Counted from the stretch's first letter, positions 19,510 through 57,120 are shown. The stretch is 64,000 bases of DNA from Omnitrophica WOR_2 bacterium GWF2_43_52 (GCA_001805445.1 MHGF01000029.1:4270-68269); one strand, 5' to 3'. A program made the numbers and translations. The notes: a model not told the origin generated them from the letters alone.

Positions 19510-19531
19510 CAGCCGCAGTGAAGGAAAAAAA

Positions 19532-19568: not shown

Positions 19569-19738
19569 CCTAAAGCCCGACTTTGAGATATTATAAATAT
19601 TCGTTTAAGGAAAGGATAAGTGATAAATTATGAATGATAAATTTAAATTTTCCCCCCTCCATGTTTTTATGCAGGCTATTCTTGTCGTAAGGTACAACGT
19701 AAAACTTATCATTTATAACTTATAATTCATAATTTCTA

Positions 19739-24394: not shown

Positions 24395-24404
24395 TAATAG
24401 TTGA

Positions 24405-24580
24405 ATAGTTACGCGGGTCCTGCCAGGGTTGTATTTTCGCAGGGACGTTCGTCCGCCGTAGGCGGACTCACTCGGCGTAAATTTTTGCACCCGCCACGGA
24501 AGTAATAGCGGGGCCAAGCTGCAAAAATTTTCGTACGCCCCGCTCAAACACAACCCTGTCACCCGCTATAAGTGTTAAGA
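24405..24580. repeat. Nested inverted repeats (about 170 nt) in the gltB-gltD spacer
   Basis: The outer pair is GCGGGTCCTGCCAGGGTTGT ... ACAACCCTGTCACCCGC. The inner pair is GGCGTAAATTTTTGCA ... TGCAAAAATTTTCGTACGCC, and a central hairpin is CCGCCGTAGGCGG. Confidence 0.55.
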
Positions 24581-24599
24581 ATTATTCGGAGAGTTCCTA

Positions 24600-26081
24600 A
24601 TGGCAGTTGATATCAAAGGTTTTTTAAAGGTGAAACGCGGGCATGCTGAATATCGGCCGGTCTGCGAGCGCGTTAAGGACTATAAGGAGGTCATTGTCTT
24701 AAGGAGCGCTTCGCAATCTGAGGAGCAAGGCTTGCGTTGTATGGACTGCGGCACGCCGTTTTGCCATTTTGGCTGCCCGGTTGGCAATTATATCCCGGAA
24801 TGGAATGAGTTGGTGGCATCCGGCAAGTGGCAGAAGGCATTTGAGCTCCTTAATGCCACTAATACTATGCCGGAGATTACCGGGAGGCTTTGCCCGGCAT
24901 TATGCGAATATGCTTGTGTATTAGGAATTAACGATGACCCTGTAACTATACGAGAGAATGAATTAGCAATTATAGAAACTGCCTTTAAAGAAGGATTTAT
25001 TAAGCCGCAGCCTCCTAAGAAGCTCACCGGAAAAAAGGTCGCGGTAGTCGGCTCAGGCCCCGCGGGGTTATCAACTGCCAGCCAGTTAAATAAAGCAGGC
25101 CATACGGTCGTGGTATTTGAAAAGTACACGCACGCAGGAGGTATTTTACGTTACGGCATCCCTGATTTTAAACTTGAGAAACGGGTGATTGATAGGCGCG
25201 TTGCTATCTGGAAAAAAGAAGGAATAAAGTTTAAGACCAATATTAATGTGGGTATAGATTATCCGGCCTCAAAATTATTAAAAGAATTTGACGCGGCCTG
25301 CCTTGCCGGCGGCTCAAGGGTTGCGCGCGATTTAAAGATAGAGGGCAGGGAATTAGCCGGGATTCATTTTGCCATGGATTATTTGATTCAGTCTAACCAG
25401 AGGGCTAGTGAAGAAAAACCAAACCCGCATTGGAAAAATTCCAATGCGGGTTTGGAAGTAGGTCAGCTTATTGATGCCAAAGGAAAGCGTGTATTGGTAA
25501 TCGGCGGAGGGGATACTGGTGCTGATTGCGTGGGGACTGCCAATAGGCAGGGCGCGTCTTGTGTGGTGCAGATAGAGGTTATGCCTAAGCCGCCTGAATG
25601 CCGCACTGAAGATATGCCCTGGCCAAGATATCCGATGCTGCTAAAAACTTCTTCAAGCCATGAAGAGGGTGGAGAGCGCCAATGGGCGGTTTTAACTAAA
25701 AAGTTTATCGGTGAAAATGGAAAGGTTACAAAGGTTTCTTGTGTAAGGGCGGAATTCCCGGGAAAAGACGCCAAAGGCTGCCCTGTGATGAGAGAGGTTG
25801 CGGGAAGCGAATTTGAGATTGAAGCGGACCTGGTAATTTTGGCAATAGGTTTTGTCCATCCCGAGCATGAAGGTTTGTTAAAAGGGTTAAAAATAGAGTT
25901 AGATTCCCGCGGTAACGTCAAAACCGACGAGAACTATATGACTTCCAAGAAGGGTGTGTTTTCCGCAGGCGATATGCGCAGGGGTCAATCCCTGATTGTC
26001 TGGGCAATCCACGAAGGCAGGCACGCAGCCCGCGCTATTGACGCCTACCTTATGGGTAAATCTTCATTACCCATTCTTTAA
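24600..26081 (+). CDS. gltD: Glutamate synthase small subunit (NADPH-dependent)
   Basis: 493 aa. N-terminal Fe-S Cys clusters (CMDCGTPFC, CPALCEYAC) and an FAD/NAD Rossmann motif (VAVVGSGPAGL). Confidence 0.9.
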   Translation: MAVDIKGFLKVKRGHAEYRPVCERVKDYKEVIVLRSASQSEEQGLRCMDCGTPFCHFGCPVGNYIPEWNELVASGKWQKAFELLNATNTMPEITGRLCPALCEYACVLGINDDPVTIRENELAIIETAFKEGFIKPQPPKKLTGKKVAVVGSGPAGLSTASQLNKAGHTVVVFEKYTHAGGILRYGIPDFKLEKRVIDRRVAIWKKEGIKFKTNINVGIDYPASKLLKEFDAACLAGGSRVARDLKIEGRELAGIHFAMDYLIQSNQRASEEKPNPHWKNSNAGLEVGQLIDAKGKRVLVIGGGDTGADCVGTANRQGASCVVQIEVMPKPPECRTEDMPWPRYPMLLKTSSSHEEGGERQWAVLTKKFIGENGKVTKVSCVRAEFPGKDAKGCPVMREVAGSEFEIEADLVILAIGFVHPEHEGLLKGLKIELDSRGNVKTDENYMTSKKGVFSAGDMRRGQSLIVWAIHEGRHAARAIDAYLMGKSSLPIL

Positions 26082-26253: not shown

Positions 26254-26544
26254 GTGATGGTAACTACCTTTGAGAAGAAGCAGATTGTCAGCAGTACAGA
26301 GCTTGTGCGGTCATTTAAAAAGTATGAAAATGAACTCCCCTTAGGAGATATTTTTATATTTAAACGCAATGCCCCTGAGGCTGTATTAATGGATTATTCC
26401 CGCTACGAGAAAATAAAGCAAAAGCTGGAAGAATTGGAAGAATTATTGGAGCATATAACTATTTATGAAATGGCTCAGCAAAGAAAATCCAGCCCAGCCA
26501 AGAAGGTCTCTTTAGAAAAACTGAAGAAGCAATATGGTTTATAG
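26254..26544 (+). CDS. Phd/YefM-type antitoxin
   Basis: Small acidic protein overlapping the downstream RelE/ParE-like gene by 11 nt. Confidence 0.55.
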   Translation: MMVTTFEKKQIVSSTELVRSFKKYENELPLGDIFIFKRNAPEAVLMDYSRYEKIKQKLEELEELLEHITIYEMAQQRKSSPAKKVSLEKLKKQYGL

Positions 26545-26842
26545 CCTAAAGTGGAAGCCGGAAGCCGAACGGGAATTTAAGAATCTTGATAAAGCAATTC
26601 AAAGGCAGGCATTTGCTCAGTTTAAAAAGTTGGAAAATTCGCCAGAACTTGGTGAACATTTAGGAGATAAGGCGGGTTTTGACCTTACAGGTTACAGAAA
26701 GCTTTATTTCTTTAAGAAAAAATACAGGGTAGTTTATGAGCTTGACTTAAGAAATAAAGAGGTCATTATCTATGCCATCGGCAAGCGGGAAAATATGAAG
26801 GTTTATCAAGAGCTTGCCAGGCGATTAGGAAAAGTGAAATAA
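26534..26842 (+). CDS. RelE/ParE-family toxin
   Basis: 102 aa basic protein with RelE-like length and a terminal KxxR...Y pattern. Paired with the upstream antitoxin. Confidence 0.6.
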   Translation: MVYSLKWKPEAEREFKNLDKAIQRQAFAQFKKLENSPELGEHLGDKAGFDLTGYRKLYFFKKKYRVVYELDLRNKEVIIYAIGKRENMKVYQELARRLGKVK

Positions 26843-27127: not shown

Positions 27128-27206
27128 TAAATAAGTATTTAACAACAATTAGCTTATATATGTTGCTGGTGTATGGAGGTACGCCAACAACGTAACTAAT
27201 ATATAA

Positions 27207-27250
27207 TGCCGGATTGCCAAAAATGGTCAGTCCGGCATTTTTTATTTTTT
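27207..27250 (+). terminator. Rho-independent terminator/attenuator upstream of the giant gene
   Basis: tgccgga-ttgccaaaaatggtcag-tccggca followed by ttttttatttttt. Confidence 0.5.
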
Positions 27251-27361
27251 GTCCATAACCAAACCCCGCAACCTACGCGGTTGACTTTTTTCCCCGACGG
27301 TAAATTTCCGCAACCTCCGCGGTTGACTTTGGTAAGGGGTTTTTATAGGAGGATTACAAAG

Positions 27362-30300
27362 ATGGTACGTAAGATAATCTCAATAGTAGTAACGATAGGC
27401 TTACTCTTTAACCAAGGCGGGGTTATTTATGCCGCGGGTGAACTTAACCTTTCAAGCTATCTTAGCCAGTTGCATACGAGCCTGGTTAAGCCCGATATCT
27501 TCCGGCCGGTGCACCTGCGCTATTTCTCCTATGACAGCCTGAATAACAGCTACAAGATACTCTTGGATAAAGGAGACTACACCAAGTCACCAAGTCACCA
27601 GGACACCCCCGACGCTTCGGTCGGGGCAGGCAGGTCACCAGAAGAAGATCTCGTGCTCAAGGAAACTGCCCAGGAGTTGATGGACTACTTCCTGATAGGA
27701 GTAACTCTCCCCAATGATACTTTTTGGGTAAACCTAAGGCCTGATGCCCCGGATACCATCATAGACCCTGAGTTAGAGACAACCGATATAGGTAAGATAT
27801 TCCTTGAGGCCGACCTCCAGCTCAAGAAGGATACCGCGAGCTTTACTTCACCCCAAACCCCTGAAGGCAAACAGTATTGGGATAAACTCTATAAAAAGGC
27901 AGGGGAATTATTTGGCTCGGAGAATATTACCATACCTACCTTAACCCGCCCATGGATAGTGCCCAATGAAATCATCGTAAGAGAAACAGATGATTCGGCC
28001 TATGTGTACAAAGCAACGCTTAAGGTGTTGCTGGAAGAAGATTATCTAAAAAGCTCTCAGCCTTCAGCTCTCAGCCCTCAGCAATACAATTTTAAAGATT
28101 CAAGGTTAAAAGAGCTCAATGAATACTCTACCCAGCTTATCAGAGAAACTATAATTCCTAAGCTTACCAGAGAGGTAAACTCAAGCCAAAGGTATGCTAA
28201 GTTACGGCAGGTATACTATTCGCTGATACTTTCAAGATGGTTTAAGGCTCGTTTTAATAGTAAAGAGTCACAAGGTCACCAAGTCACAAGGTCACAAGGA
28301 GAAAATTACATTAATTTAATTGATAGGCGTAATCTCACTAACCTTACCTCAGAAGAACTATGGGATAAGATTACCTATTTTAACCAATACAAAGACTCCT
28401 TCAACAAAGGTGAATATAATATCAAGGAACCTACGTTTACTGCCTACGGCCAGAGTATCAGGAGTTATACCAGCGGGGGGATTGGCATTGGGCAAGCGAT
28501 ATTACCTTTTGAAGCTGATATGCAAGGTCAAGGCGCAGGGAGTCCAATACGGGGAGGAAGTTTTCAAGGGAATAATCCTGTTATTTCTGATGCGGTAATT
28601 GGCGCAGATGAAAAGAGTATAGTTTTAGATGAAAATCTTGAAGTTGTTGAACAGAAGCCTGTTGCCCTCGCCGCCTCGCCGGTGACTGTTGAAGATGCAG
28701 ATCAAAAGATTCTGGATATTCTTGAAGAAGAATTTATTTCAGATATTTTCCCAAAAGATGTGGTAGAGAAGTTTAAAGAATATAAAAGCATTAAAATTAG
28801 CAAATTTAGCAATATTGATAAGGATGTTGGAATGCCCCATGCAAGAAAAGATATAGAGAAATTATCCAGAATAAAAGGCTTTCTTAGGTATGTTATGAAT
28901 GAGTACACTAAAATAAAAGAAAAAGATGAGACCCGAGCGCGGGTACTCCTTAATAAGATAAAAATCTTGCAAGAATATCTAGAACAAGCATTAGGTGGAG
29001 AATTGTCAGTGCTTAAGGAATTTGCCGCTAATATTAATGCTGGAAAAATAACAGTTATTAGCGTTGCCATATTAAAGCAATGGGAAAAATTAATGGCTGA
29101 TATGCTTATTTCTGAAAGATACCACGCATTTGTTAAGCATTTGACTAAGAGAAATATAGAATTCTCTCGGGCAGGGAGCCTGATGAAGATATTGAACTTA
29201 GAAAGAGCAGGTAAGCGCGCCACGCAATTTAAAATTAAAGCTGGAGAGACTCTCGAGAAAAAATATAACCCCGGAGATAAATTTATTTTCAACGATGTTT
29301 TGCCGGATATTGCTTTAGGAATTAACTTTGGGGGGATACTTACTGATATAATAGTAAACGCTAATCCGCTCTTGTGGGGAAATGTGCTTATTCTTCCCGA
29401 TCCCAGTAAGTGCCTTAGCCAATATTTTAACAAAGAAGCAGCGATAGTAGCTCTTAATTTATTGGATAAGTTTAACAACCCGGGTTATAAACTAGGATTT
29501 AATGGCCCTGGGGCTTTTGCTTCTGTCCCTCAACTTCATCTGCAGGGATTTGATTATTTTGACAGCACTGGAGAAGATAAATTGCCCGTAGAAAACGCTG
29601 AAAAAACTTCTTTTTTCAGCAATAACAACGTATCCATTATGACTCTATCAGATTGGGCAGTCAATACCATTGTTTTAAACGGTAGTTCATTAGATTCATT
29701 AAACAAAGCGCTGGTATTACTTACCGATATATTGCATAAACGTAATCAACCGTTTAATATCGTTTTCACAAAAAATAGTGATAACAACTATGCTGTGTAT
29801 GTTTTTCCTAGAAAGCTGGAAGGCCCTGGGGGGGTTTTTGGCACAGGCGTTGCATTTTTAGAGTTAGCCGGAGCAGTATTGTTTACTAATCAGAATTTTG
29901 GCGGAGTGATGTTAAAAGATAAAGATAAAGAAAATCTTGAACAGCGCATAGCTTATCTTAAAAACATACGTCAGATAATATTTGGGGGTGGGACTATTGC
30001 AGAAGACCTCGTTCAGAGTGTTGGACTCGATTGGAAGGATGTTTCCAGCAAATTGATCGAAAATGGTTGGGCGAAGCCAAAAAATAAAACAGAAGTGACT
30101 TTAACAGCAAGTTTGGAACAGGTAAAAGACAGCATGTCAAGAGTTTTTGGTGATAAATGGGAAAAAATTATCTCAATCCTGGAGATTGATGACTTTCGTT
30201 ATGAAAATGAAAAAAACAAAGACGGTGATTATGTTTATTATGCTCGTCCCAAGAGAAGCGGTGAAAGCAAAGAAATTACCCCGTCGGATCTTAGCAATAA

Positions 30301-33300
30301 ATTTATGCACTATATTGATTTATCAAATATAGTGGAAATTCTTTATCAGAAAGCTGGGAGAGAGCCAGAGTTGAGAAAGTATTATGAGAAGATAACAAGC
30401 GAGTTTTATAAGGAAAAATCAGTAGATAATTACAAACAAGCTGAAGAAGATGATTTGCGAAAAGATATTGCCGCCGTGGGGATAGATGATGGCACATTTG
30501 AGAAAATTTTAGAAGTTTATAAAGATCAGTTAGTAAATTTATTCTCTGCCGCCTCGCCGCTGACAACGTTGAAGGAGAAGATAAGCGGGGTGTTCGAGAA
30601 AATACAGGAAAAGATAAATGACCAAGGACTCTTAAATTATAAAGAAGAATTAGCATCATTCTTGGAGAATTTAGAAAAAGATTTAGAAAGGCCGTTAAAT
30701 GAGATAGATAATGTTGTGAACGGGCAAGGCACTCTAAAAGATGCTTTTAGCGCGATTGAAAAAATATCAACTATTCTATTTAATAAGGAAGGTGAAATAG
30801 GCAGTATCCATACCGATATCAAGTCTATGATGGTAAGTTTGCACAGGTATGAACTGCCATCGCTTATGAGGCAAATTGAAAAGAGCCTTGGGCAGAGGGA
30901 AATCACCGCCTCGCCGCTGACGAAACAGACCGTAAAAGATGTACAATTTAACCCAGGAGAAAAGGTGTTCTTGCGCGCTGAGGTTAATATGCCAACCGAT
31001 GAGCAAAGAAATATCACTGACTATACGCGCCTTAAACAGGCGTTACCTACTATCAAATATTTGATAGGACAAGGAGTGAAGCTTGTTATTGCAGGACACC
31101 TGGGCCGGCCGCAGGAGGAGAAAAACAAGGATTTCAGTTTAGATATAGTAGCTCAGGCTCTACGATCTGAGTTGCCAGGAGTAACCATTACATTTGACAA
31201 GACAATCTTTACCCCTAAAGACGCGGAAGGTTTTATTAATTCCGAGATGAAAAACGGGGATATTTTACTTTTAGAAAACGTCCGGATGAATAAAGATGAA
31301 GAACAAAAAGAAGGGATTAATAGCCAATTCGCCAAAGATTTGTTTTTTGGCATAGATAAATATGTTTCAGATGCCTTTGGGGTTATGCATAGAGAAAACA
31401 ATGTTTCAATGGTTGGCGCTCCTAAGGGGATGCCGCGTGTTGCCGGGCTTTTAGTCCAGAAGGAAATAGAGTACCTGAATAAGATTTTGAATCCTGATGT
31501 GGCAATTGTCGGAGGAGCAAAAGTATCCGATAAAATTAAAATAATAGAGAAGCTTTTAGAAAAAGCGGATAAAATTCTTATTGGCGGGGCAATGACATTC
31601 GCTTTTGAAAAAGCCATGGGGAAAGATATTGGCAATTCTAAGCTTGGTAAGAATAAGGAAGAGGCAGAAAGAGAAACGCAATTTGCAAGGCAGCTTCTTG
31701 AAAAGGCGAAAGGAAAAATAATCCTTCCTTTGGATCATATAGTTGCAGATAGATTTAATAATGATGCGGAAAGAAAATCTGCGGAGTCAGGCAAGATCCC
31801 TGACGGCTGGATGGGCTTAGACATTGGCCCTGAGACTATTAAGCATTACAGAGCAATCATTGAGGAGGCGGAAACAGTTATCTGGAACGGCCCTATGGGG
31901 GTATTTGAATTTGATAATTTTGAGCAAGGCACGAGAGTAATAGCCGAGGCAATGGCAGTGGTAAAGAAAAAAGGCGGTATCGCGGTGGTAGGAGGGGGAG
32001 ATTCTGCTTTCGCGGTAGAGAAGTTTGGGCTAGCTGGTGAAATGTCACACGTATCTACAGGAGGAGGCGCGGCCTTAAAGTTTATCGAAGATGATGGCAA
32101 TTTGCCAGGAATTCTAGTGTTAAGTGATAAAGTAGAGGGCATCACCGCCGGCCTGCTGGGAGAAGAAATGTCGGGGGTGTATGGCGAGAATGCGCAGCCT
32201 TTACGCTATGTTTCTGTTGAAGATTTAACTGAGGGGGAACTTAGCTCTTTGAGAAGTTCCATCGTTGAGCGGATGACGTTGTCTGCAAGGGAAACGGATA
32301 ATACATATAAAAATGCGCGCTTTGCGGTTGAAATAGACCAAGGTAAGATTATTGTCTGGGGGAGGTTGGAATATAATGAAAAGACAAATGCAATAAGCCA
32401 GATTATCTTCCCGAACGCTCTAAACCTGAGCGAAGATAAGAAAAAAGATATAGAGGCTGCCTTTATTCAGGCATGGGATGAAGAATCGAAAATAAATGTT
32501 CTTTACACCGCCTCGCCGTTAGAATCTACTCCAGAGATATATGTGTTGGATAATCATCTATCGCTTGCAGAAGGAGCTAAAACCGGGAAGGCTAATATTG
32601 GGCTTGCTAAATCTAGCCTATACGATGGAGGAATTTTAAATCATTCTGAGGAGCGTGCCAGGCTTGAGTGGGCTATAGGGAATGTATTAGGAAGAATACT
32701 TTATTTTGGGTATGAGCGGTTTGACAGTGAACTTAACCGCATGGTTTTTGCTGATGAAGCAGTAGGAATTTGGAAAGCAACTTTAGCAACCGAAGGTATA
32801 TCCGAAACTGATTATAAAGAATATTTTGATCTTCAAAAAGAAAAGGACAAGATTAATCGTGATAATCTGCAAGATAGCGCACGCTCTATAGTGAACAGAA
32901 TAATTAATCTTCAGTTGAAAAAACTAATAGCTTCTACAAAGGGGGAAAAGGGGTATCCAGTCAAACAAGTTGTACTTTGCGTTGGTGAGGATTTAGGTCA
33001 GCGTTACGCAGGGCGGACGCAGGATGTTTTAAGGCAGGACATAAAGGAAATTTTAAAGGACATAATGAAAGAAGATGTGCAGAAATATGGGGGTATTGGT
33101 TTGAGGATAGCCTATGAGCCGCGCTGGGCAATTGGAACAGGCAAAACGCCTACATTGGAAGAGATTCAGAATGCGCATAGATTTATAAAAGATACTCTAA
33201 AAAGCGCAGGAGTACTAGGCATAGAGCTTGATGTTGATTATGGCGGAAGCTTAAACGCAAAGAACAAAGAGATATTATCTTTGCCTGACGTTGACGGTGG

Positions 33301-36229
33301 GCTTATTGGCAGTGCTGCCAAAACCGTTGAGGCAATCAAACCGGTTATAGAGGAAGCGATTATTCAAGGGGAGAAAAAGGGGAAAATCCTCAATATCGGG
33401 ATGAACTGGAAGGCTGAAAATAGAGGAACTGGTTTAGCCCCGCTGGGAAGCTTTATGGCATTTTTCAAGAGCCCTGGTTTTAATATTGTGGGTAAGCTAA
33501 GCATAGCCATTGGAACTACCCGGGTTAGAGATGTTAAAATGGCAGTATTGGGGGTTAAAGAGTATTATAAAAAAATTTACCAAGCAGCCGCCTCGCCGCT
33601 GGCGCTGGAGAATGAAGTGAAGGTGATACAGGAAGTAAGAGAAAAATTAAATGCATATCATAGCGGTACTATACTGCAATTCTCAAACGTATCGCTATCG
33701 AACCTTATAATATCAGTCACAAAGATGGCTAACGAAATTCAGCCAATGAATCGTATGGCTTTACCCGAAGAAGCACAAAAATGGTTTGGTATTGAAGCAG
33801 GGCTTGTACGGATTCAGGCCAAAGTCAGAGAAAATATGGAAGCATATAAAAAAGAGTTGGCAGCTTTTTATGCGGAAATCGGGCAGCATTCATATATTAA
33901 ATTGGATGAAGAGCAGAAATTATACTACACTAATAAATATGCCCGTGATATTGAAACGACGAATGACGTAGATGTAATTATTGAAGCGGCAGAACATGCC
34001 TATCGGCTGCGGGAGACTTATTTAGCGCAAGAGGCACAAAAAAAGATTGTTTCTCAGGGTAATACTTCCGCCGCCTCACCGTTGACGCTTAAGGAATTCT
34101 CTAAAAAGCTTGATCAGATGCCTAATAATAAAGTGTCGTCTCACGAAGCATTTTTAGAATTAATTAAGATGGCATCAGAGCTTTCAGCCCGGGAGGAGAT
34201 ACCGGAAAATATCCAAGAGAAAATATACGCGGCAGTCAGCCGTATCATGCCTGTGGCAGGTGAATATGTTGATAAAGAGCGTAAGGATATCCCCGGGCAG
34301 GCCCGTACTATAGAACCTATCCTGGCTATAATTGAAAGCGGATTAGAAAATTATATGGTTAAAGAGGATATGGGGTTTAAATTAGTGGACGCTATTGAGA
34401 AGGCCTTAACAGGGCATCTTGCCTATTCAAGGTATACACAACAGATAGATGATGTAATAACCGCAATAAAAAAAGATCATATTAAGATAGAAAAGATTCA
34501 AGAGTTTATTAAAGATTCGTTTAGCCAGTATGATGGCATTAAAGATGCGATTGATTTTAAGAGCGGAGAAATCGCGGAGTTGCTTGAGAAAAATAAAGAG
34601 GCTAATGCATTACTCGCGTCAGTAAGGCAGGCAAAGGAGATAACCGCTAAGCAAAGCGGCAATACAATCAAAGGCACGTATATAGACCAATCCCTCTTTG
34701 ACGCTATGGCTTGGGATATAATGATCCAAAGAGTAAGAATCGATAAATTAGAGGAAATTCTGGATGAACAGGTGAGCCGGACGAATCAATTTTTTACCAG
34801 TGATTCTATCAAGCTTTTCTGTAAGGAGTTTAAGGAAGCAGGCAAAACCGGGAAAAAACGCGTATTAGTTTCCAGGTTTAATGAAATCCGGGAAGAGGGC
34901 TCAAGAACCGATAGCGAATTGATCCAGCTAAGAGATTACTTAGCCGGGATTTTAGGAGTATATTATTTAAAAGCGGCTGAGGAGGTAAGAAGCAAGCTTA
35001 CGCCACAGGATACAGTAGAATATAAAGAAGCCCTTGATGCGGCAGGACAAGTTATTGATCTTCTTCTTAAAGGTAACGTAAAGGATCAGTTGTTTTCCGC
35101 GCAATTAGATACCGTTGTCAAGGCGTGGGATAGTATGCAAAAATCCCGTTCATCGTCGGCGCTTACCGCTGAAGAATTTATTCTTGCGGTAGATGCTCTT
35201 GGGAAAATGGCCAAAGAGAAGACGATCTCATATGAAACTGCTTTTGACAGAATGGTAGGAGCGGTTTCGGCTCTTGAAAAAGATGTAGTGGTTCCTTATG
35301 CTAAAATAGCCGATGAGTTGTATTCAATAATTCACAATGGGGTGGCGCTTGACCCTTATAGGTTAACTCTCTGGGAAGATGCCAAAGAAACGTTGTTAAG
35401 AAGGAAGAAATATGCCAGAGAGGGCATTCTTGATATGATTGAAAAAAGATTAGAGATATATAAGCGTGATTTAGCGCAGAAAGCGGGTAAAGATCTTAGC
35501 AAGTGGATAGGCGCGCTCACCGCTCACTTAGGCGCAGGTATCCGCGACTATAAAGAACACATAAACTCTATTAAAAGTACTGAGGATTTATTGTTGACTA
35601 AGGTTCAAGAGTTTTCTTCGGTCAATCGAGCGGTACAGAAGAAAGAATGGTCTGATGATAAAGAGAAGTATTATGAAGCTATGAAAAGGAAAGGCGTTTC
35701 TATTGACGAATTGAAAGGGAAATTGGATGAGATAGATAAATATAACGAATTCCTCTTAACAGTAGCTAAAGCGCGAGAAGCCATCTCTGCCGGCCAAAAA
35801 TCGTCTTCGTCGTCGCTTGTCGCTCAAGAGCCTGCTCAAGACTTTGCTATCCCTGAAGCCCAAAATACCTTCGGTGGTATTGATATGACCGACAGGGCGC
35901 TGCATATTAACTTTGAGCGCTGGGGAAGCCTTGCGGATATAGAGATGGAGCTGCCAAAACTCAGTCATGTGGAAGCGATTGATTTAGACAATGAATACCA
36001 GCAGATACAGGCCATGGCCTCATCCGGCATCAGGCCTTCAGATACGCGTATTTTGGAGTTTATCGCCGCCTGCTATTATAGGGAAGAATTTAGCCAAAGG
36101 CTTTCTGAAATCACCGCCTGCCTTAAAGAAGCGCATGCCTTGGATGAGCGTGAGGGAAAAGAAAGCAGCGAGACCCTGCGTTTAGCCACCTTGCTCCCTG
36201 ATGCGTTGTACGTAAATAGCCTGAATTAA
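27362..36229 (+). CDS. Giant secreted multidomain protein (~2,955 aa) containing a phosphoglycerate-kinase domain and a triosephosphate-isomerase-like domain
   Basis: RBS AGGAGG precedes the ATG at 27362. A signal peptide (MVRKIISIVVTIGLLFNQGGVIYA) is present. The PGK motifs are HLGRPQ, IVGGAKVSDKIKIIEKLLEKADKILIGGAMTFAF, GGGDS and STGGGA. The TIM motifs are AYEPRWAIGTGKTPT and YGGSLN...VDGGLIGSAA. The conserved N- and C-terminal domains are shared with the 813-aa paralog. Confidence 0.8.
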   Translation: MVRKIISIVVTIGLLFNQGGVIYAAGELNLSSYLSQLHTSLVKPDIFRPVHLRYFSYDSLNNSYKILLDKGDYTKSPSHQDTPDASVGAGRSPEEDLVLKETAQELMDYFLIGVTLPNDTFWVNLRPDAPDTIIDPELETTDIGKIFLEADLQLKKDTASFTSPQTPEGKQYWDKLYKKAGELFGSENITIPTLTRPWIVPNEIIVRETDDSAYVYKATLKVLLEEDYLKSSQPSALSPQQYNFKDSRLKELNEYSTQLIRETIIPKLTREVNSSQRYAKLRQVYYSLILSRWFKARFNSKESQGHQVTRSQGENYINLIDRRNLTNLTSEELWDKITYFNQYKDSFNKGEYNIKEPTFTAYGQSIRSYTSGGIGIGQAILPFEADMQGQGAGSPIRGGSFQGNNPVISDAVIGADEKSIVLDENLEVVEQKPVALAASPVTVEDADQKILDILEEEFISDIFPKDVVEKFKEYKSIKISKFSNIDKDVGMPHARKDIEKLSRIKGFLRYVMNEYTKIKEKDETRARVLLNKIKILQEYLEQALGGELSVLKEFAANINAGKITVISVAILKQWEKLMADMLISERYHAFVKHLTKRNIEFSRAGSLMKILNLERAGKRATQFKIKAGETLEKKYNPGDKFIFNDVLPDIALGINFGGILTDIIVNANPLLWGNVLILPDPSKCLSQYFNKEAAIVALNLLDKFNNPGYKLGFNGPGAFASVPQLHLQGFDYFDSTGEDKLPVENAEKTSFFSNNNVSIMTLSDWAVNTIVLNGSSLDSLNKALVLLTDILHKRNQPFNIVFTKNSDNNYAVYVFPRKLEGPGGVFGTGVAFLELAGAVLFTNQNFGGVMLKDKDKENLEQRIAYLKNIRQIIFGGGTIAEDLVQSVGLDWKDVSSKLIENGWAKPKNKTEVTLTASLEQVKDSMSRVFGDKWEKIISILEIDDFRYENEKNKDGDYVYYARPKRSGESKEITPSDLSNKFMHYIDLSNIVEILYQKAGREPELRKYYEKITSEFYKEKSVDNYKQAEEDDLRKDIAAVGIDDGTFEKILEVYKDQLVNLFSAASPLTTLKEKISGVFEKIQEKINDQGLLNYKEELASFLENLEKDLERPLNEIDNVVNGQGTLKDAFSAIEKISTILFNKEGEIGSIHTDIKSMMVSLHRYELPSLMRQIEKSLGQREITASPLTKQTVKDVQFNPGEKVFLRAEVNMPTDEQRNITDYTRLKQALPTIKYLIGQGVKLVIAGHLGRPQEEKNKDFSLDIVAQALRSELPGVTITFDKTIFTPKDAEGFINSEMKNGDILLLENVRMNKDEEQKEGINSQFAKDLFFGIDKYVSDAFGVMHRENNVSMVGAPKGMPRVAGLLVQKEIEYLNKILNPDVAIVGGAKVSDKIKIIEKLLEKADKILIGGAMTFAFEKAMGKDIGNSKLGKNKEEAERETQFARQLLEKAKGKIILPLDHIVADRFNNDAERKSAESGKIPDGWMGLDIGPETIKHYRAIIEEAETVIWNGPMGVFEFDNFEQGTRVIAEAMAVVKKKGGIAVVGGGDSAFAVEKFGLAGEMSHVSTGGGAALKFIEDDGNLPGILVLSDKVEGITAGLLGEEMSGVYGENAQPLRYVSVEDLTEGELSSLRSSIVERMTLSARETDNTYKNARFAVEIDQGKIIVWGRLEYNEKTNAISQIIFPNALNLSEDKKKDIEAAFIQAWDEESKINVLYTASPLESTPEIYVLDNHLSLAEGAKTGKANIGLAKSSLYDGGILNHSEERARLEWAIGNVLGRILYFGYERFDSELNRMVFADEAVGIWKATLATEGISETDYKEYFDLQKEKDKINRDNLQDSARSIVNRIINLQLKKLIASTKGEKGYPVKQVVLCVGEDLGQRYAGRTQDVLRQDIKEILKDIMKEDVQKYGGIGLRIAYEPRWAIGTGKTPTLEEIQNAHRFIKDTLKSAGVLGIELDVDYGGSLNAKNKEILSLPDVDGGLIGSAAKTVEAIKPVIEEAIIQGEKKGKILNIGMNWKAENRGTGLAPLGSFMAFFKSPGFNIVGKLSIAIGTTRVRDVKMAVLGVKEYYKKIYQAAASPLALENEVKVIQEVREKLNAYHSGTILQFSNVSLSNLIISVTKMANEIQPMNRMALPEEAQKWFGIEAGLVRIQAKVRENMEAYKKELAAFYAEIGQHSYIKLDEEQKLYYTNKYARDIETTNDVDVIIEAAEHAYRLRETYLAQEAQKKIVSQGNTSAASPLTLKEFSKKLDQMPNNKVSSHEAFLELIKMASELSAREEIPENIQEKIYAAVSRIMPVAGEYVDKERKDIPGQARTIEPILAIIESGLENYMVKEDMGFKLVDAIEKALTGHLAYSRYTQQIDDVITAIKKDHIKIEKIQEFIKDSFSQYDGIKDAIDFKSGEIAELLEKNKEANALLASVRQAKEITAKQSGNTIKGTYIDQSLFDAMAWDIMIQRVRIDKLEEILDEQVSRTNQFFTSDSIKLFCKEFKEAGKTGKKRVLVSRFNEIREEGSRTDSELIQLRDYLAGILGVYYLKAAEEVRSKLTPQDTVEYKEALDAAGQVIDLLLKGNVKDQLFSAQLDTVVKAWDSMQKSRSSSALTAEEFILAVDALGKMAKEKTISYETAFDRMVGAVSALEKDVVVPYAKIADELYSIIHNGVALDPYRLTLWEDAKETLLRRKKYAREGILDMIEKRLEIYKRDLAQKAGKDLSKWIGALTAHLGAGIRDYKEHINSIKSTEDLLLTKVQEFSSVNRAVQKKEWSDDKEKYYEAMKRKGVSIDELKGKLDEIDKYNEFLLTVAKAREAISAGQKSSSSSLVAQEPAQDFAIPEAQNTFGGIDMTDRALHINFERWGSLADIEMELPKLSHVEAIDLDNEYQQIQAMASSGIRPSDTRILEFIAACYYREEFSQRLSEITACLKEAHALDEREGKESSETLRLATLLPDALYVNSLN

Positions 36230-36580: not shown

Positions 36581-36826
36581 TTGCTGAATCCCGCGGATAA
36601 CAAAGACAAAAACGAGAATCTTAAATACTTAAAGGTTGTCCTTGAGGCTACAAGCATCCCCTTTGTATTGCTTGGCGGGCCGATGGTGGGATTTTTTATC
36701 GGGGCTTTTCTTGACCAAAGGTTTAATTCCGGGAAGTTATTTACTTTTCTCTTTGTAGTGTTGGGTTTTGTCGCGGCAGTCAAAGAAACTATTTATATTA
36801 TTAAGAGGGTGCAAAAAGGCATATAA
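36581..36826 (+). CDS. AtpZ/AtpI-like small membrane protein of the ATP synthase operon
   Basis: 81 aa with 2 TM segments. First gene of the atp operon. Confidence 0.5.
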   Translation: MLNPADNKDKNENLKYLKVVLEATSIPFVLLGGPMVGFFIGAFLDQRFNSGKLFTFLFVVLGFVAAVKETIYIIKRVQKGI

Positions 36827-36828
36827 GC

Positions 36829-37224
36829 GTGGAGATCTCTTTTATCTACAAGTCGCTCAAAGTAAGCTTTTGGTTTACTCTACTGCTTTCATTATTTTCT
36901 CTTTATTATTTCGGCCAAAAATTCACATTAGGCTTAATCAGCGGCTCTTTCTGGAGTATAGCTAATTTTTTGCTTTTTGTTGGGCTTTCAAAAGCTTTTA
37001 CGGATATTGCTCATAACAAGCTGAAGATAGCCTTGTATGCTTTTATTAAGTTTGGAGCGCTTTATATTACAGGTTATTTGATTATATCATCGTCTAAGGT
37101 TTCATTGCCCGGTATCAGTGTGGGGTTTGGCATCATTTTTACGGTGATTTTTCTGCAGGCAATAGGAATGGTGTTTGCCTCGTTGGAGACTACAGCGCAA
37201 CCGGAAAAATTAAAATGTCTCTGA
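36829..37224 (+). CDS. atpI: ATP synthase protein I-like membrane protein
   Basis: 131 aa with 4 TM segments and a GTG start. Lies between the atpZ-like gene and atpB. Confidence 0.5.
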   Translation: MEISFIYKSLKVSFWFTLLLSLFSLYYFGQKFTLGLISGSFWSIANFLLFVGLSKAFTDIAHNKLKIALYAFIKFGALYITGYLIISSSKVSLPGISVGFGIIFTVIFLQAIGMVFASLETTAQPEKLKCL

Positions 37225-37251
37225 CGGGGTTTACTCAAAAAGAGGTGCCTT

Positions 37252-38073
37252 GTGTCAGGCTCTGAAAGCTCCTCACAGGAATTAGCAAATTTTATCGGTA
37301 TCACGGTTAAAGGTTTAGGTGATTCAGGCCTTGGGATATTCCTTCATCGCTGGGAAAATGTGATTTTTTCCTTGATAGCGGTGGTGTTTCTATCTCTTAT
37401 GGCTTACTTTGCCCAGCGTAACCGCTCTTTTGTCCCTGAGCGAAGGCTCCAGAATATGGTTGAGGTACTGGTTGAGAGTTTAAGTAATTTTGTCTCCGGG
37501 GTCCTGGGTGAAAAAGAAGGCAGGCATTATCTTCCGTATATAGGCACGCTTTTTCTCTATATCTTAATTATGAATTTTATGGGTATGGTGCCGGGAATGA
37601 AATCGCCCACGTCCAGCCTGAACACGACTGTGGCACTTGCGCTTTGCACCTTTATCTACGTGCAATATACCGGGATACGGAGGCTGGGAATGATCGGCTA
37701 TCTTGACCATATGGCAGGAAGCCCGCGCATGCCTGAGGAAAAAGGCGTTTTTAAAATATTCTTAATTTTACTGTTTATTCCTATCCATATCCTTTTATTC
37801 ATTATCCATATTATTGGCGAGTTTGTAAAACCAGTAAGCTTATCCCTGCGTCTTTTTGGGAATATTACCGGTGAAGACGCGCTTTTGTATGTGTTTGTTA
37901 TGTTGGGGCTTTCAATGTTTTCTGCCTGGAAAAGTCCCGTAGGGTTCCCTCTGCAGATACCGATAATGTTTTTGTCGTTAATCGGGGGGGCGGTGCAGGC
38001 AATGGTCTTTAGCCTGCTTTCGGCAGTGTATATCTCGATGATGCTTCCGCATCATGAAGAAGTGAAACATTAA
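37252..38073 (+). CDS. atpB: F0F1 ATP synthase subunit a
   Basis: 273 aa. Conserved Arg within LSLRLFGNI. Confidence 0.85.
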   Translation: MSGSESSSQELANFIGITVKGLGDSGLGIFLHRWENVIFSLIAVVFLSLMAYFAQRNRSFVPERRLQNMVEVLVESLSNFVSGVLGEKEGRHYLPYIGTLFLYILIMNFMGMVPGMKSPTSSLNTTVALALCTFIYVQYTGIRRLGMIGYLDHMAGSPRMPEEKGVFKIFLILLFIPIHILLFIIHIIGEFVKPVSLSLRLFGNITGEDALLYVFVMLGLSMFSAWKSPVGFPLQIPIMFLSLIGGAVQAMVFSLLSAVYISMMLPHHEEVKH

Positions 38074-38096
38074 TAAGAAAGGAGAAACGTAAAAAA

Positions 38097-38339
38097 ATGG
38101 ATGCAAATACAGCATTAGCACTTTCTTTGCCGTTTGGATTGGCAATCGCCGCGCTGGCAAGTGCCTTCGCGTTGGGCAGGGCAGTGTCGGCAGCAATGGA
38201 TGCCATGGCGCGCCAGCCTGAGGCAGCCCCGAAAATTCAGGTGGCGATGATTATCGGATGCGCTTTTATTGAAGCATTGACGATTTACGCGTTTGTTATC
38301 GCGTTTCTTTCAATGGCAAAGATACAGGCGGTTCATTAA
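38097..38339 (+). CDS. atpE: F0F1 ATP synthase subunit c
   Basis: 80 aa hairpin protein. Within IEALTIYAFVIAF, the E of IEAL is the proton-binding carboxylate. Confidence 0.85.
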   Translation: MDANTALALSLPFGLAIAALASAFALGRAVSAAMDAMARQPEAAPKIQVAMIIGCAFIEALTIYAFVIAFLSMAKIQAVH

Positions 38340-38340
38340 T

Positions 38341-38440
38341 CTACAATGTAGGGCTACGCGAATAAACGCGAATAAAAAGATTGAGAATATTCGCGAATTA
38401 AAATTCGCGTAAATTTACGTAACAATGTAAAGTTGTTTCA
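38341..38440. repeat. Palindromic array with the variant core CGCGAAT/ATTCGCG
   Basis: acgcgaat aaacgcgaat ... attcgcgaat taaaattcgcgt aaatttacgt. An ACAATGTA direct repeat flanks the array at both ends. Confidence 0.55.
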
Positions 38441-38469
38441 TTGCAGTAACTTTTTAGTAAGGCACGAAC

Positions 38470-38955
38470 ATGATGAATCTTGATTTTCAACAGGTACTTA
38501 CCCAAGCCGTAGGTTTTCTCATCCTTTTGGGGCTGCTCAAGCTGTTTTTCTGGAAGCCGGTCATATCTTTACTTGACCAGAGGAAAGAAAAGATAGCCGC
38601 GGAGTTTAAACACATTGAGGACGCCAAGGCAGAGCTTGCTACATTAAAGGCTGAATATGAAACAAGGCTTGCCTCAATTGAGGAAATCGCCCGGCAGAAG
38701 ATAAAAGAGGCTGTTGAAGAAGGAAAAAGAATAACCGATGAGTTGAAGTCCAAGGCTGAGGAGCAGGCACGCCAGATAATAGAAAGTGGCCGGGAGAATA
38801 TCAGGCAGGAGCTCTTAAAGACAAAGCAGGAATTAAAAAGCCATATCGTGGATTTGGCGTTAAGGGCTACTGAGAGTATTATCCTTGAGAAACTCACGGC
38901 AGATCATGACAAGAAGCTGGTTGAAGATTTTCTTGACAAGATAGACAGGGCCTGA
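38470..38955 (+). CDS. atpF: F0F1 ATP synthase subunit b
   Basis: N-terminal TM segment followed by a long charged coiled coil. Confidence 0.8.
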   Translation: MMNLDFQQVLTQAVGFLILLGLLKLFFWKPVISLLDQRKEKIAAEFKHIEDAKAELATLKAEYETRLASIEEIARQKIKEAVEEGKRITDELKSKAEEQARQIIESGRENIRQELLKTKQELKSHIVDLALRATESIILEKLTADHDKKLVEDFLDKIDRA

Positions 38956-39016
38956 TGAACCCCGCGCCTTCTAAAATGTTTAAAAGATTAAAAATGAATA
39001 AGAACGAAGGTGCGGG

Positions 39017-39565
39017 GTGAAGGACGATGTGCTAGCAAAGAGATACGCCGATGCCTTTTTAAGCTATGCCTGCCAGGGCCTAAGTGAAGAAAAGGCGCTT
39101 GACGATTTTAAAAAGGCAAGGGAAATTCTCTTAGAGAATAAAGAGCTTATTCTTGATTTCTTGGAAGCTCCGGCAGTAACCGTGCTTGAGAAAAACGCCT
39201 TTATTGATAAGTTCTTTGGCGAGGGCTTCTCAGAAGAGTTCCGGCAGTTTTTAAAATTTCTTTTAAAGAAAAACAGGATCGACAAACTCTGGGATGTCGC
39301 GGAATATGTCAGGGTCGCCTATTCTCACGGCAAAAGCGTAAGGGCGCTGCTTAAGACGAGTTTTCCTTTAGATTTGGAATTGGTCCAGTTGATTATTGAC
39401 AGCCTGGAGAGAAAGTTCCAGAGAAAAATCAAACTGTATATAGAGCTTGACGGCGAGCTGTTAGGGGGAGTTAAGGTGGTCATAGGCAACAAGGTAATTG
39501 ATGGGTCCGTGAAAAGGCGTATTGAAAGGCTTAAAGAACGATTTGAAACACTAAGGACTGCGTAA
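39017..39565 (+). CDS. atpH: F0F1 ATP synthase subunit delta
   Basis: 182 aa OSCP/delta-like protein, positioned between atpF and atpA. Confidence 0.75.
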
Positions 39566-39566
39566 A

Positions 39567-41096
39567 ATGGCGATAAAACCGGAAGAAGTAACATCAATAC
39601 TCAAGAAAGAATTAGAAAAGTACCGTTCAAAGATTGAGGTGGAGTCGGTTGGTACCGTAATCCAGGTGGGAGATACTATTGCCCGCGTCTATGGCCTGGA
39701 TGATGTGATGATGGGTGAACTGGTGCAATTCCCCGGCGGGATTATGGGAATGGTGTTAAACTTGGAAGAAAATAGCGTGGGTGTGGTTATCTTCGGGACT
39801 GACAATGCTGATATGACTATCCGCGAGGGGGATATTGTCAAGCGCACAGGAAAAATTGTCCAGGTCCCTGTGGGTAATGCCCTGGTGGGACGGGTAGTAA
39901 ACGCGCTGGGAAGCCCGATTGACGGTAAAGGCGCCGTGGTTACGGATAAATATCGGCCTCTTGAAGCAGGCGCCCCTAATGTCATTGACCGTCAGCCGGT
40001 AAAAGAGCCGCTTGAAACCGGCATCAAGGCAATTGATTCAATGATTCCTATCGGTAGAGGGCAAAGAGAGTTGATTATCGGCGACCGCCAGACAGGAAAA
40101 ACCGCGATTGTTATTGATACTATCATCAATCAAAAAGGAAAAGGCGTTTACTGTATCTATGTGGCGATAGGCCAGAAGATGTCAAGTGTGGTGGCTATAC
40201 ATGAACTTCTGAAGACCTATGGGGCAATGGAATATACTACTATCGTCAGCGCCTCAAGCCGGGCATCAGCATCGTTACAGTATTTAGCGCCGTACGCTGG
40301 ATGCGCGATAGGCGAAGAGATGATGTATTCGGGAAAGCATGTGCTAGTGATTTATGATGACCTTTCTAAGCATGCCCAGAGCTATCGGCAGCTGTCGTTA
40401 CTTTTAAGGCGCCCACCGGGAAGAGAGGCATATCCCGGTGACGTGTTTTATCTGCATTCCCGCCTTTTAGAGAGGGCGGCAAAGCTCAAGGATTCCTTAG
40501 GCGGAGGCTCGCTTACCGCGTTACCTATAATTGAGACACAGGCCGGAGATATCACCAGCTATATCCCGACTAATGTTATTTCAATTACTGACGGCCAGAT
40601 TTACCTTGAGAATGACCTATTTTATTCAGGGGTGCGCCCGGCTATAAACGTGGGGCTATCCGTTTCAAGAGTCGGAGGCAAGGCCCAGATAAAGGCAATG
40701 CGCCAGGTGGCCGCGAAGCTGCGCCTTGACCTGGCCCAATACAGGGAATTGGCGGCGTTTGCCCAATTCGGAAGCGAATTGGATAAGACTACCCAGATGC
40801 AGCTGACCCGCGGGGAGAAGATGGTTGAAATACTCAAACAGGCGCAGTTTGTGCCGCTTCCGGTGGCAAGGCAGATTTTGATTATTTATTGCGGCACGCG
40901 CGGGTTTCTTGACGATTTGCCGATACACTTACTCAAGGATTTTGAGGCCAAAATCTTCGCGCATATCGAGAAGGAATATCCTGACCTTGAGTATGAGATT
41001 GAGAATAAAAAAGAATTAAGCCCTGATTTGATGAAAAAGCTTGATGAGATAATTGCTTCGTTCAAGCAGTATTTCAAAGGCACAGGCGCAAGCTAA
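39567..41096 (+). CDS. atpA: F0F1 ATP synthase subunit alpha
   Basis: 509 aa. Walker A GDRQTGKT. Confidence 0.95.
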
Positions 41097-41110
41097 CCGC
41101 ATTCAGTCGT

Positions 41111-43382
<2,272 letters not shown>

Positions 43383-43386
43383 GATA

Positions 43387-43644
43387 ATGGAAAAAGACTT
43401 TTTACTTACCATACTTTGCCCGGATAAAAAATTATACGAAGGGAGAATCAAGTCGTTAATAGTGCCTTCTGAATTAGGGTATCTTGGTGTCCTCGCTAAC
43501 CACGCCCCGCTTATCACTAACCTTGTTCCCGGAAAAATCACCATCCGCAATCCATCCGATGAGATAACCGTACTTCATGCTCACGGTAAAGGCTTCTTAG
43601 AAGTTTTTAAGAATAACGTCACCCTCCTCGTAAGCGCCGCCTGA
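43387..43644 (+). CDS. atpC: F0F1 ATP synthase subunit epsilon
   Basis: The ATG lies 4 nt after the atpD stop and the product has an epsilon beta-sandwich N-terminus. The tracked ORF starting at 43351 is an in-frame upstream extension overlapping atpD. Confidence 0.8.
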   Translation: MEKDFLLTILCPDKKLYEGRIKSLIVPSELGYLGVLANHAPLITNLVPGKITIRNPSDEITVLHAHGKGFLEVFKNNVTLLVSAA

Positions 43645-43715
43645 TGCGCTTAACCACGTTCATTTAATTATAATAGTCTAAAGAATTGACAGCGTCTCTG
43701 GACACTAAAAAACAA

Positions 43716-43748
43716 AAAAGCCCTTTATCCAAGGGCCCTTTTGGAGGC
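43716..43748 (+). terminator. Rho-independent terminator after the ATP synthase operon
   Basis: aaaaagccctttatccaagggccctttt. A second hairpin plus T-run (tagcgcttgtcgcta ttttttt) follows at about 43758-43785. Confidence 0.6.
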
Positions 43749-44206: not shown

Positions 44207-45844
<1,638 letters not shown>

Positions 45845-57117: not shown

Positions 57118-57120
57118 TAT

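Follow-up and report, generated by a model that had tools for sequence, protein, structure and literature searches.

How does a protein with a signal peptide come to carry glycolytic enzymes in its middle? The question is raised by a gene at positions 27362-36229 of a 64,000-nucleotide stretch from the genome of Omnitrophica WOR_2 bacterium GWF2_43_52 (GCA_001805445.1, MHGF01000029.1:4270-68269), the whole of which I will call the window. The product is 2,955 amino acids (aa) long, and a first-pass annotation, made from the sequence alone, had recognized within it a complete phosphoglycerate kinase (PGK) and part of a triosephosphate isomerase (TIM). Comparison with other proteins shows the gene to be a member of a very large modular family restricted to Omnitrophota, with a fixed head and a fixed tail around swappable enzyme cassettes.

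The open reading frame lies on the plus strand, is uninterrupted, and has about 40% GC. The frame is open from 27206 to 36229, and the start was taken to be the ATG at 27362, in agreement with the start of all homologs. An AGGAGG sequence is found 9 nt 5' of this ATG, and a terminator hairpin lies upstream of the gene. This is a real gene and not a chimera. The identification of a complete PGK within a signal-peptide protein was correct. Pfam PGK (PF00162) matches aa 1192-1576 from position 2 to position 377 of the 379 in the profile (E-value 1.4e-122; 409.8 bits, as compared to a cutoff of 27), a full-length match that takes in both Rossmann-like domains. The best PDB match to this part of the protein is PGK from Thermotoga maritima (1VPE; full length, E-value 4e-98), and a hidden Markov model (HMM) of stand-alone PGKs aligns over its positions 3-395 with 422 bits, the highest score of all embedded PGKs tested. 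The substrate and nucleotide motifs are intact, as had been claimed: the basic patch that binds 3-phosphoglycerate (H1246 and R1249 in HLGRP, R1308 in ENVRM, H1343 and R1344 in DAFGVMHR), the nucleotide and hinge residues (K1387 and K1391 in GGAKVSDK, D1547 in GGGDS), and also NGPMG and STGGG, all within aa 1246-1569. The best 120 matches in a search with the PGK domain are Firmicutes-type or plant PGKs, with 45-48% identity, and none of those with a named source comes from Omnitrophota.

The TIM is less straightforward. It had been described as the C-terminal two-thirds of a barrel. The match itself is real (Pfam PF00121, aa 1869-1997, E-value 6.7e-30; 104.8 bits against a cutoff of 20.1), and the E-values of the PGK and TIM profiles exclude chance for both domains, but the match covers profile positions 118-243 of 245 and is therefore only the C-terminal half. 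The NCBIfam equivalog cutoffs for TIM are not reached (67 bits vs. 255). This Pfam stretch includes AYEPRWAIGTGK (with E1919), YGGS, and GGLIGSAA. The first-pass annotation also supposed that the histidine of GHSERR had been replaced, in the segment VGEDLGQRY. That segment turns out to be the canonical beta-5 "lCvGE", and the motif containing His95 and Glu97 is GGILNHSEER (H1761, E1763), about 100 residues upstream of it, preceded by VLDNH...EGAKTGK, the counterpart of "AQN...GAyTGE" in TIM. Scored alone against an HMM built from 104 TIM sequences, the GGILNHSEER segment aligns with positions 68-101 (E-value 0.005), and positions 122-249 follow with an E-value of 6e-43. When the insert (about 80-100 aa) is removed, the histidine segment joins one continuous alignment over positions 80-258.

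The beginning of the barrel is found at its end. A segment resembling the N-terminus of TIM had been noticed downstream, and rightly so: NIGMNWKAEN (N2015, K2017) lies beyond the Pfam stretch. The last strand (DVDGGLIGSAA) is followed by KGKILNIGMNWKAEN...LAPLGSFMAFF...KLSIAIGT..., and a profile of this C-terminal piece and its relatives aligns with TIM positions 3-47 (beta1-alpha1-beta2; hhalign P 0.0016). The pieces thus run 68-101, insert, 122-249, 3-47, with none duplicated or missing. Since all eight units occur once each, the order is beta3-beta4, insert, beta5-beta8, beta1-beta2, in place of the canonical beta1 to beta8. The catalytic set is kept in full, N11 (N2015), K13 (K2017), H95 (H1761), E97 (E1763), and E165 (E1919), as are the loop-6 lid (PRWAIGTGK) and the phosphate loops 7 and 8 (YGGS and GGLIGSAA). 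The same permuted order is found in three relatives (P0358, P0359, and P0005). In P0358, whose TIM is 49% identical, KGKILNIGMNWKAEN is unchanged, which implies selection on the active site. Re-joining the pieces in silico hardly raised the Pfam score (112.3 vs. 111.4 bits), because of the insert and of divergence. "Circular permutation or decay" had been offered as alternatives. I consider it very probable that the cassette is circularly permuted and apparently intact, given the order of the pieces and its conservation in the three relatives; decay is the poorer reading, with all three catalytic residues present.

Six other family members have a TIM in canonical order. PGK, too, is permuted in some relatives: in P0007, P0009, and P0010 HMM positions 294-394 (E-values of about 1e-15 to 1e-17) robustly come ahead of positions 11-291 (about 1e-68), the permuted PGK of P0007 occupying aa 1213-1609 (L002 6001-16803). 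A limited literature search, no part of it aimed at TIM permutation, brought up no report of naturally permuted TIM or PGK cassettes; as far as I have found, then, natural permutants of TIM and (in relatives) of PGK with intact active sites have not been described.

The ends of the protein place it within its family. A search with the whole protein gave 471 matches of 1,600-4,900 aa, and every match with a named source came from Omnitrophota. These proteins have no more than about 13% of the query in common with it (50-64% identity) and otherwise have different Pfam domains. The shared parts are aa ~1-400, which is N-terminal in 119 of 119 homologs, and aa ~2830-2955, which is at the extreme C-terminus in at least 100 of the 119. 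The head domain by itself finds 7,324 representatives of clusters formed at 50% identity (4,798 of them with E < 1e-30), always at the N-terminus, in proteins of 400-7,391 aa. Two exact peptide patterns, sought in the GTDB species genomes, gave 428 confirmed stretches, and the 76 distinct GTDB loci that were returned come from metagenome-assembled genomes (MAGs) of Omnitrophota, with the exception of a few whose label is Planctomycetales or simply "bacterium". At least 13 such loci belong to one MAG and 6 to another. The protein considered here has what characterizes the family: a signal peptide and head, a GGID tail at the very end, and cassettes bounded by junctions.

The N-terminus reads MVRK-IISIVVTIGLLF-NQGGVIYAA/GE (the slash marking the putative cleavage site), with a positively charged n-region and small residues in the c-region, and has neither a lipobox cysteine nor twin arginines. 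This layout is kept in 112 of 116 full-length homologs. By hydropathy, the rest of the 2,955-aa protein has no further hydrophobic segment of transmembrane strength. The tail (about 120 aa) is predicted to consist of an extended leader, opening with GGID, and a four-helix bundle (predicted local distance difference test, pLDDT, 85); a fold search with it matched only generic helical bundles. The head (about 360 aa) matched no known fold, and no relatives of head or tail were found by phmmer against PDB, in BFVD, or in PADLOC.

What lies between the ends varies. The cargo of the family includes much of central carbon metabolism (GAPDH, PGK, TIM, enolase, both kinds of PGM, aldolase, FBPase, PEP synthase, PMM, PGI, transketolase, and transaldolase) and, besides these, guanylate kinase, methyltransferases, GNAT, histidine-kinase ATPase, receiver, GGDEF, radical SAM, DnaJ, and HEAT domains. 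Here the order is a GDPGP1-like nucleotidyl phosphorylase, a helical spacer, PGK, the permuted TIM, and three helical spacers. The Pfam matches of the GDPGP1-like module (PF26217 and PF26216) were precomputed, and a separate Pfam scan did not reproduce them; a module 43% identical to it is present in the family gene in L028. The embedded PGKs are very divergent, scoring 44-75 bits in a syntenic group as compared to the 422 bits found here. Some are degenerate: HLGRP, HR, and GGAKVSDK are lost in P0005 or P0039, the PGK of P0039 being without HR and GGAKVSDK. The syntenic arrangement, groES-groEL-[PGK member, with or without GAPDH or enolase]-guaB-guaA-dnaE-HU-hisS, is kept in three Omnitrophota genomes (L081, L082, and L083; gene from 10001), and in L083 genes for a type II secretion system (T2SS) and pseudopilins lie directly upstream of the family member.

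Two short metagenome contigs, those of P0358 and P0359, encode a signal peptide followed directly by the same permuted TIM, without the head domain, and in P0358 GAPDH follows the TIM. Signal-peptide glycolytic fusions therefore exist outside the head/tail family as well.

The cassettes meet at a short peptide, with the family consensus A-[AS]-S-[PA]-[VLI]. The present protein has six canonical instances ([AT]-A-S-P-[LV]) and two degenerate ones. Over 120 family proteins the motif occurs 483 times, vs. 37 in shuffled sequences, a 13-fold enrichment. In the four proteins P0001, P0003, P0019, and P0020 no copy of it lies within a Pfam envelope; complete enzymes (iPGM, PGM/PMM, GPI, and PGK) are bounded by consecutive motifs; and at TIM cassettes the motif lies within about 10-15 residues of beta-1. 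Similarity between paralogs breaks at the same points. Over the 115-aa spacer (aa 1068-1181), identity with a module in L013 is 55%, and this match spans the interval between two junctions exactly, the sequence on either side being unrelated; similarity to the PGK cassette of P0002 starts exactly at TASPL/ASSVL; and similarity of P0002 to the helical cassettes (36% identity) ends at its own SSSSL junction. Moreover, the best relative of each module is a different family gene. From these breaks and differing relatives it follows that the family is a mosaic of cassettes. The C-terminal third of P0019 (L001 6001-16044; aa ~2250-3230) consists of tandem modules of about 115-265 aa, each with its own junction (GSSPV or ASSAV), and shows cassette duplication in place.

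The conservation of the junctions extends to nucleotides. All six canonical junctions of the gene are encoded by the GC-rich sequence RCCGCCTCRCCGNTR, which occurs in six exact copies and nowhere else in the 64 kb; six matches were reached in none of 100 shuffles, and the probability of this choice of codons, given the amino acids, is about 2e-4 per site. In the family at large the coding element is a GC-rich 12-mer, GCC-NNC-TCG-SCG. A family gene from a different genome has five identical copies of GCCGCCTCGCCG, and GCCAGCTCGGCG is the commonest variant at junctions elsewhere. Codon statistics were drawn from 86 junctions in 76 family genes. The first alanine is encoded by GCC at 69% of junctions (27% in the background) and the serine at position 3 by TCG at 63% (background 11%), almost never by AGY; at position 4, alanine is GCG in 64% (background 21%) and proline is CCG in 59% (background 28%). 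The excess of TCG stands out even against S-[PA] dipeptides found elsewhere in these genes, 18% of which use TCG (Fisher p 5.6e-18). Third codon positions carry 0.6-0.9 bit of information within the 12-nt core and about 0.03 bit outside it. Family genes contain the degenerate 12-mer 52 times, in each case in frame on the sense strand; 869 kb of flanking sequence contains it 4 times, and it never occurs antisense.

Statistics of this kind can show that the 12-mer is under constraint at the level of nucleic acid, but not explain it. The candidates are a site of recombination or cassette insertion, a translation-kinetic signal, and a factor-binding site. Segments of ±45 nt around the six junctions, when folded, gave z-scores between -0.6 and +1.4 and no common local RNA structure. 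A pause caused by rare codons was considered, and is insufficient by itself: TCG is seldom used, but GCC and CCG rank with the most frequent codons.

Table 1. Features of the giant gene and of its smaller paralog. Positions are counted from the first nucleotide of the window.
Feature	Position (nt)	Strand	Residues (aa)	Remarks
Direct repeat, 23 bp, CCGCAACCTNCGCGGTTGACTTT, two copies	27266-27288 and 27308-27330	+		Promoter region of giant gene; 2 matches vs. 0 expected by chance
Sec-type signal peptide (predicted)	27362-27439	+	1-26	RK n-region, 12-aa h-region, c-region NQGGVIYAA/GE
Family head domain	27440-28516	+	27-385	Conserved FWVNLRPD, DLQLKKDTA, IPTLTRPWIVP, LRQVYYSL, GEYN
Junction 1, AASPV, GCCGCCTCGCCGGTG	28670-28684	+	437	
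Cassette 1, GDPGP1-like (HIT-superfamily nucleotidyl phosphorylase)	28685-30547	+	442-1062	Precomputed Pfam PF26217 GDPGP1_N, PF26216 GDPGP1_C
Junction 2, AASPL, GCCGCCTCGCCGCTG	30548-30562	+	1063	
Helical spacer	30563-30904	+	1068-1181	55% identical to L013 module
Junction 3, TASPL, ACCGCCTCGCCGCTG	30905-30919	+	1182	Homology to P0002 PGK cassette begins here
PGK cassette	30920-32506	+	1187-1715	Canonical PGK aa 1187-1590 (nt 30920-32131), then ~125-aa uncharacterized extension
Junction 4, TASPL, ACCGCCTCGCCGTTA	32507-32521	+	1716	
TIM cassette, very probably circularly permuted	32522-33586	+	1721-2075	HMM, hhalign, relatives with same order
TIM beta3-loop3-beta4	~32561-32662	+		H1761, E1763
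TIM insert, ~100 aa	32663-32965	+		Position of alpha4
TIM beta5-beta8	32966-33358	+		E1919
TIM beta1-alpha1-beta2-alpha2	33374-33586	+		N2015, K2017
Junction 5, AASPL, GCCGCCTCGCCGCTG	33587-33601	+	2076	
Helical spacer	33602-34069	+	2081-2236	Without family match
Junction 6, AASPL, GCCGCCTCACCGTTG	34070-34084	+	2237	
Two related helical cassettes	34085-35803	+	2242-2596 and 2602-2814	Partly kept in P0002
Degenerate junction, SSSAL, TCATCGTCGGCGCTT	35150-35164	+	2597	Between the two helical cassettes
Junction 8, degenerate, SSSSL, TCTTCGTCGTCGCTT	35804-35818	+	2815	
Family tail and stop codon	35864-36229	+	2835-2955	Invariant GGID (G2838, G2839), extended leader, four-helix bundle
Second, minimal family member	46169-48610	+	813 aa in all	Signal peptide, head (58% identity), ~300 aa helical, GGIDF tail (39% identity)

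What might such a protein do? The reading I favor, in which I place about equal belief and doubt, is that of an exported multi-enzyme carrier with active PGK and TIM. The signal peptide would send the chain through Sec, and the head and tail would serve a common role in targeting, anchoring, or assembly, whatever the cargo. PGK and TIM keep all their catalytic and substrate-binding residues, and for that reason I read them as probable working enzymes rather than inert folds. Enzymes that handle sugar phosphates and nucleotides would thereby be placed outside the cytoplasm of the producer, in the periplasm, on the cell surface, or at or within an attached host or prey cell, while the junctions would be flexible hinges and probably also points of processing or recombination. 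Export is favored by the conserved signal peptide, by the lack of an internal transmembrane segment, and by the T2SS and pseudopilin genes beside one member, and it accords with the proposal that Omnitrophota live as host-dependent nanobacteria.

A number of considerations weigh against that reading. PGK, GAPDH, and the radical-SAM cargo and the cargo dependent on thiamine pyrophosphate or S-adenosylmethionine in other members (e.g., P0074) need ATP, NAD, or Fe-S clusters, none of which is expected in the periplasm or outside the cell. What passes through Sec is unfolded, and the usual route for Fe-S proteins is Tat. Cleavage of the signal peptide and export were called by eye from the sequence, with no predictor, and no protease, recombinase, or receptor partner has been identified. 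The junction motif is sparse, about 1-2 per 1,000 aa, and some members have none. The 813-aa paralog has junctions (GSSPL and AASPL) whose codons differ from those of the six in the giant gene; the nucleotide signal is therefore not obligatory. Finally, the slot that PGK members occupy in three genomes, between groES-groEL and guaB-guaA-dnaE, is a conserved housekeeping one, and 1.3 Mb of Omnitrophota loci, a sample biased towards family genes, yielded neither pgk nor tpiA as a stand-alone gene.

These last points would sit well with a housekeeping polyprotein, in which the bacterium would rely on PGK and TIM as its own glycolytic enzymes, possibly its only ones, acting in the cytoplasm. The hydrophobic N-terminus and head might then do no more than tether the chain to the membrane or nucleate it there, or cutting at junctions before or during export might keep the cassettes inside; the family would amount to operons encoded as single polypeptides. 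Besides the core-gene neighborhood, the need for cytoplasmic cofactors, and the retention of catalytic residues, the order of cargo in P0005 and P0007 mirrors a gap-pgk-tpi-pgm-eno operon, and all PGK and TIM matches in the 1.3 Mb are embedded, though the bias of that sample blunts the argument. According to a 2026 preprint (10.64898/2026.06.07.730766), moreover, KEGG orthology assignments for PGK, GAPDH, and enolase are present in 176 of 176 complete genomes, gene lengths not being given. All the same, I judge this explanation unlikely, though a serious contender: the charged n-region, 12-aa h-region, and AxA-like c-region predict the export of everything downstream, the extreme divergence of the embedded PGKs and the loss of key motifs from some (P0039, P0005) are unlike what one sees in an essential single-copy enzyme, and the cargo includes regulators, methyltransferases, and repeats that form no pathway.

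The folds might instead have been co-opted, without catalysis, as structural, adhesive, or ligand-binding modules at the surface, much like the GAPDH, enolase, PGK, and TIM that "moonlight" on other bacteria. Non-catalytic co-option was a possibility raised by the first-pass annotation. Some members (P0005 or P0039) have degenerate PGKs; the location is predicted to be without substrates; and the TIM has a large insert and a rearranged topology. I find this very unlikely for the present protein. Finding the catalytic histidine undercuts it, for every binding and catalytic motif of PGK is intact, as are N11, K13, H95, E97, E165, the loop-6 lid, and the phosphate loops of TIM, and the identity of KGKILNIGMNWKAEN in a relative with only 49% identity implies that the active site is under selection. 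That the whole is an artefact, an assembly chimera or a decaying pseudogene in which glycolytic genes became fused to unrelated sequence, is hardly credible. It is true that the combination of GDPGP1, PGK, and TIM is known from one public contig only and that the GTDB representatives contain no ortholog with the same cargo. But the frame is open for 8.9 kb in a gene of about 40% GC, the head and tail are properly placed, and the window agrees with the public contig at all but 1 of 28,868 nt. The chimera in particular, which had been named as what could overturn the first interpretation, did not materialize and is rejected on two grounds: on either side of PGK and TIM stand junctions typical of the family (six copies of its 12-mer flank the cassettes), and many independent assemblies have PGK or TIM cassettes embedded in like manner.

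Beyond the exported carrier lies a more speculative proposal, which I consider distinctly unlikely as a whole: that the 12-mer is the site at which cassettes are inserted, excised, duplicated, or permuted in frame. The gene would then be a cassette array within a reading frame, by a logic like that of integron arrays or MARTX mosaics, and would yield thousands of combinatorial exported proteins. The peptide motif would perhaps be a cut site, and working glycolytic enzymes, possibly the sole copies, would be exported, there to carry out sugar-phosphate and ATP chemistry in an extracytoplasmic compartment or within an attached prey cell.

How much of this was known? Glycolytic modules within secreted giant proteins had been thought undescribed, but that view is outdated: their presence in Omnitrophota is already known. 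The preprint of West-Roberts et al. (2023; bioRxiv 10.1101/2023.11.21.568195) reports TIM, PGI, FBPase, PGM/PMM, FBA, and PPDK within Omnitrophota "Archaeovorins" of at least 30,000 aa, doubts the prediction that they are extracellular, and suspects cleavage, at points given there as not known. Long "multi-enzyme metabolic cluster" proteins are catalogued in the 2026 preprint (10.64898/2026.06.07.730766). In the published view, Omnitrophota are nanobacteria dependent on hosts; most of their long proteins have a signal peptide or belong to the membrane, and genes for T2SS and pili flank them. The giants in these preprints resemble the present protein in coming from the same phylum, in being long signal-peptide proteins with embedded enzymes of cytoplasmic type, and in presenting the same puzzle of localization; they differ in having 10,000-147,000 aa and many transmembrane helices, as compared to 2,955 aa and none. 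Judged by length, transmembrane helices, and Pfam domains, the protein is no Archaeovorin: it falls far short of 30,000 aa and lacks the many transmembrane helices and the glycosyltransferase, hydrolase, SecA-like, and C39/S8 peptidase domains. Neither the head/tail family nor the junction motif with its coding bias is described in the full-text literature searched, or in the accessible parts of the two preprints, and full-text searches also gave no description of fused or multidomain glycolytic enzymes in Omnitrophota. New here are an explicit account of how the family is built, a junction element whose synonymous sites are conserved, and a TIM that appears to be naturally permuted and functional.

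Other systems offer partial likenesses. The PGK-TIM fusion of Thermotoga (NF010569, PRK13962) also has PGK followed by TIM on one chain, and T. maritima PGK is the closest solved structure. However, that model scores 504 bits here, as compared to a cutoff of 883, the present TIM is permuted and separated from PGK by about 125 aa and a junction, and the Thermotoga fusion is a cytoplasmic protein of 645 aa, without signal peptide, head, tail, or other cassettes. It is only superficially related. MARTX toxins are large secreted proteins with conserved ends around mosaic effector modules, which are freed by cleavage of linkers; their hallmarks are glycine-rich repeats, a cysteine protease domain inside the chain, and secretion by a type I system. 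Conserved ends around a variable mosaic array make them the nearest architectural analogy, though an analogy only: here there is a Sec signal, no repeats, no protease domain (no such match in Pfam or NCBIfam), and cargo of housekeeping type rather than toxins. Stramenopiles import a TPI-GAPDH fusion into their mitochondria. With an N-terminal targeting peptide ahead of fused glycolytic enzymes, that protein has a striking bacterial parallel in P0358, but belongs to another domain of life, uses another targeting system, and has a TIM of canonical topology. Engineered permutants (e.g., PDB 1FW8, a permuted yeast PGK) demonstrate that such folds tolerate new termini. Those are laboratory constructs, whereas the TIM described here and the PGKs of P0007, P0009, and P0010 are natural.

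Omnitrophota are abundant, uncultivated, ultra-small, and apparently host-dependent, and their enzyme-studded giant proteins are a recognized puzzle. The gene described here, with its fixed head, fixed tail, and recognizable junctions, is a small and tractable representative. Since the junction motif supplies candidate boundaries or cleavage points, it allows the giants to be divided into pieces that can be expressed and tested one at a time. Conservation at synonymous sites points to an undescribed constraint on nucleic acid, be it through recombination, insertion, or control of translation, and the permuted TIM and PGK are of interest for protein evolution and engineering. Should the embedded enzymes prove to be the sole glycolytic copies, or to act extracellularly, the metabolism reconstructed for the phylum would have to be revised.

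The surroundings of the gene are ordinary, as is the case for family genes generally, which are located amid housekeeping genes. In another genome the slot GOGAT-gltD-[member]-CTP synthase is occupied by a member with different cargo (FBPase and TIM), and among the GTDB representatives the head most similar to this one is found in a short member (L005, 68-74% identical). The single difference in the overlap with the public ENA contig (k141_730141 in ERZ27254852) falls in codon 284 (nt ~28211-28213), which encodes valine in the window, where the database protein has glycine; throughout the family this position, within LRQVYYSL, is invariably valine. Each copy of CCGCAACCTNCGCGGTTGACTTT in the promoter region contains TTGACT and a 5-bp inverted repeat (CAACC/GGTTG), with no further copy in the window, and is possibly an operator or else a -35 region or promoter element.

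Upstream lie genes of core metabolism (14831-26081): an ammonium transporter, type III glutamine synthetase, the large subunit of GOGAT, and gltD. Downstream are a complete operon for F-type ATP synthase and CTP synthase (36800-45844), and further on is a cluster of tRNA-Lys, tRNA-Leu, and tRNA-Gly (57120-57959). Between gltD and the giant gene there is also a gene pair encoding an antitoxin of PhdYeFM type and a toxin of ParE type (~26257-26842, plus strand).

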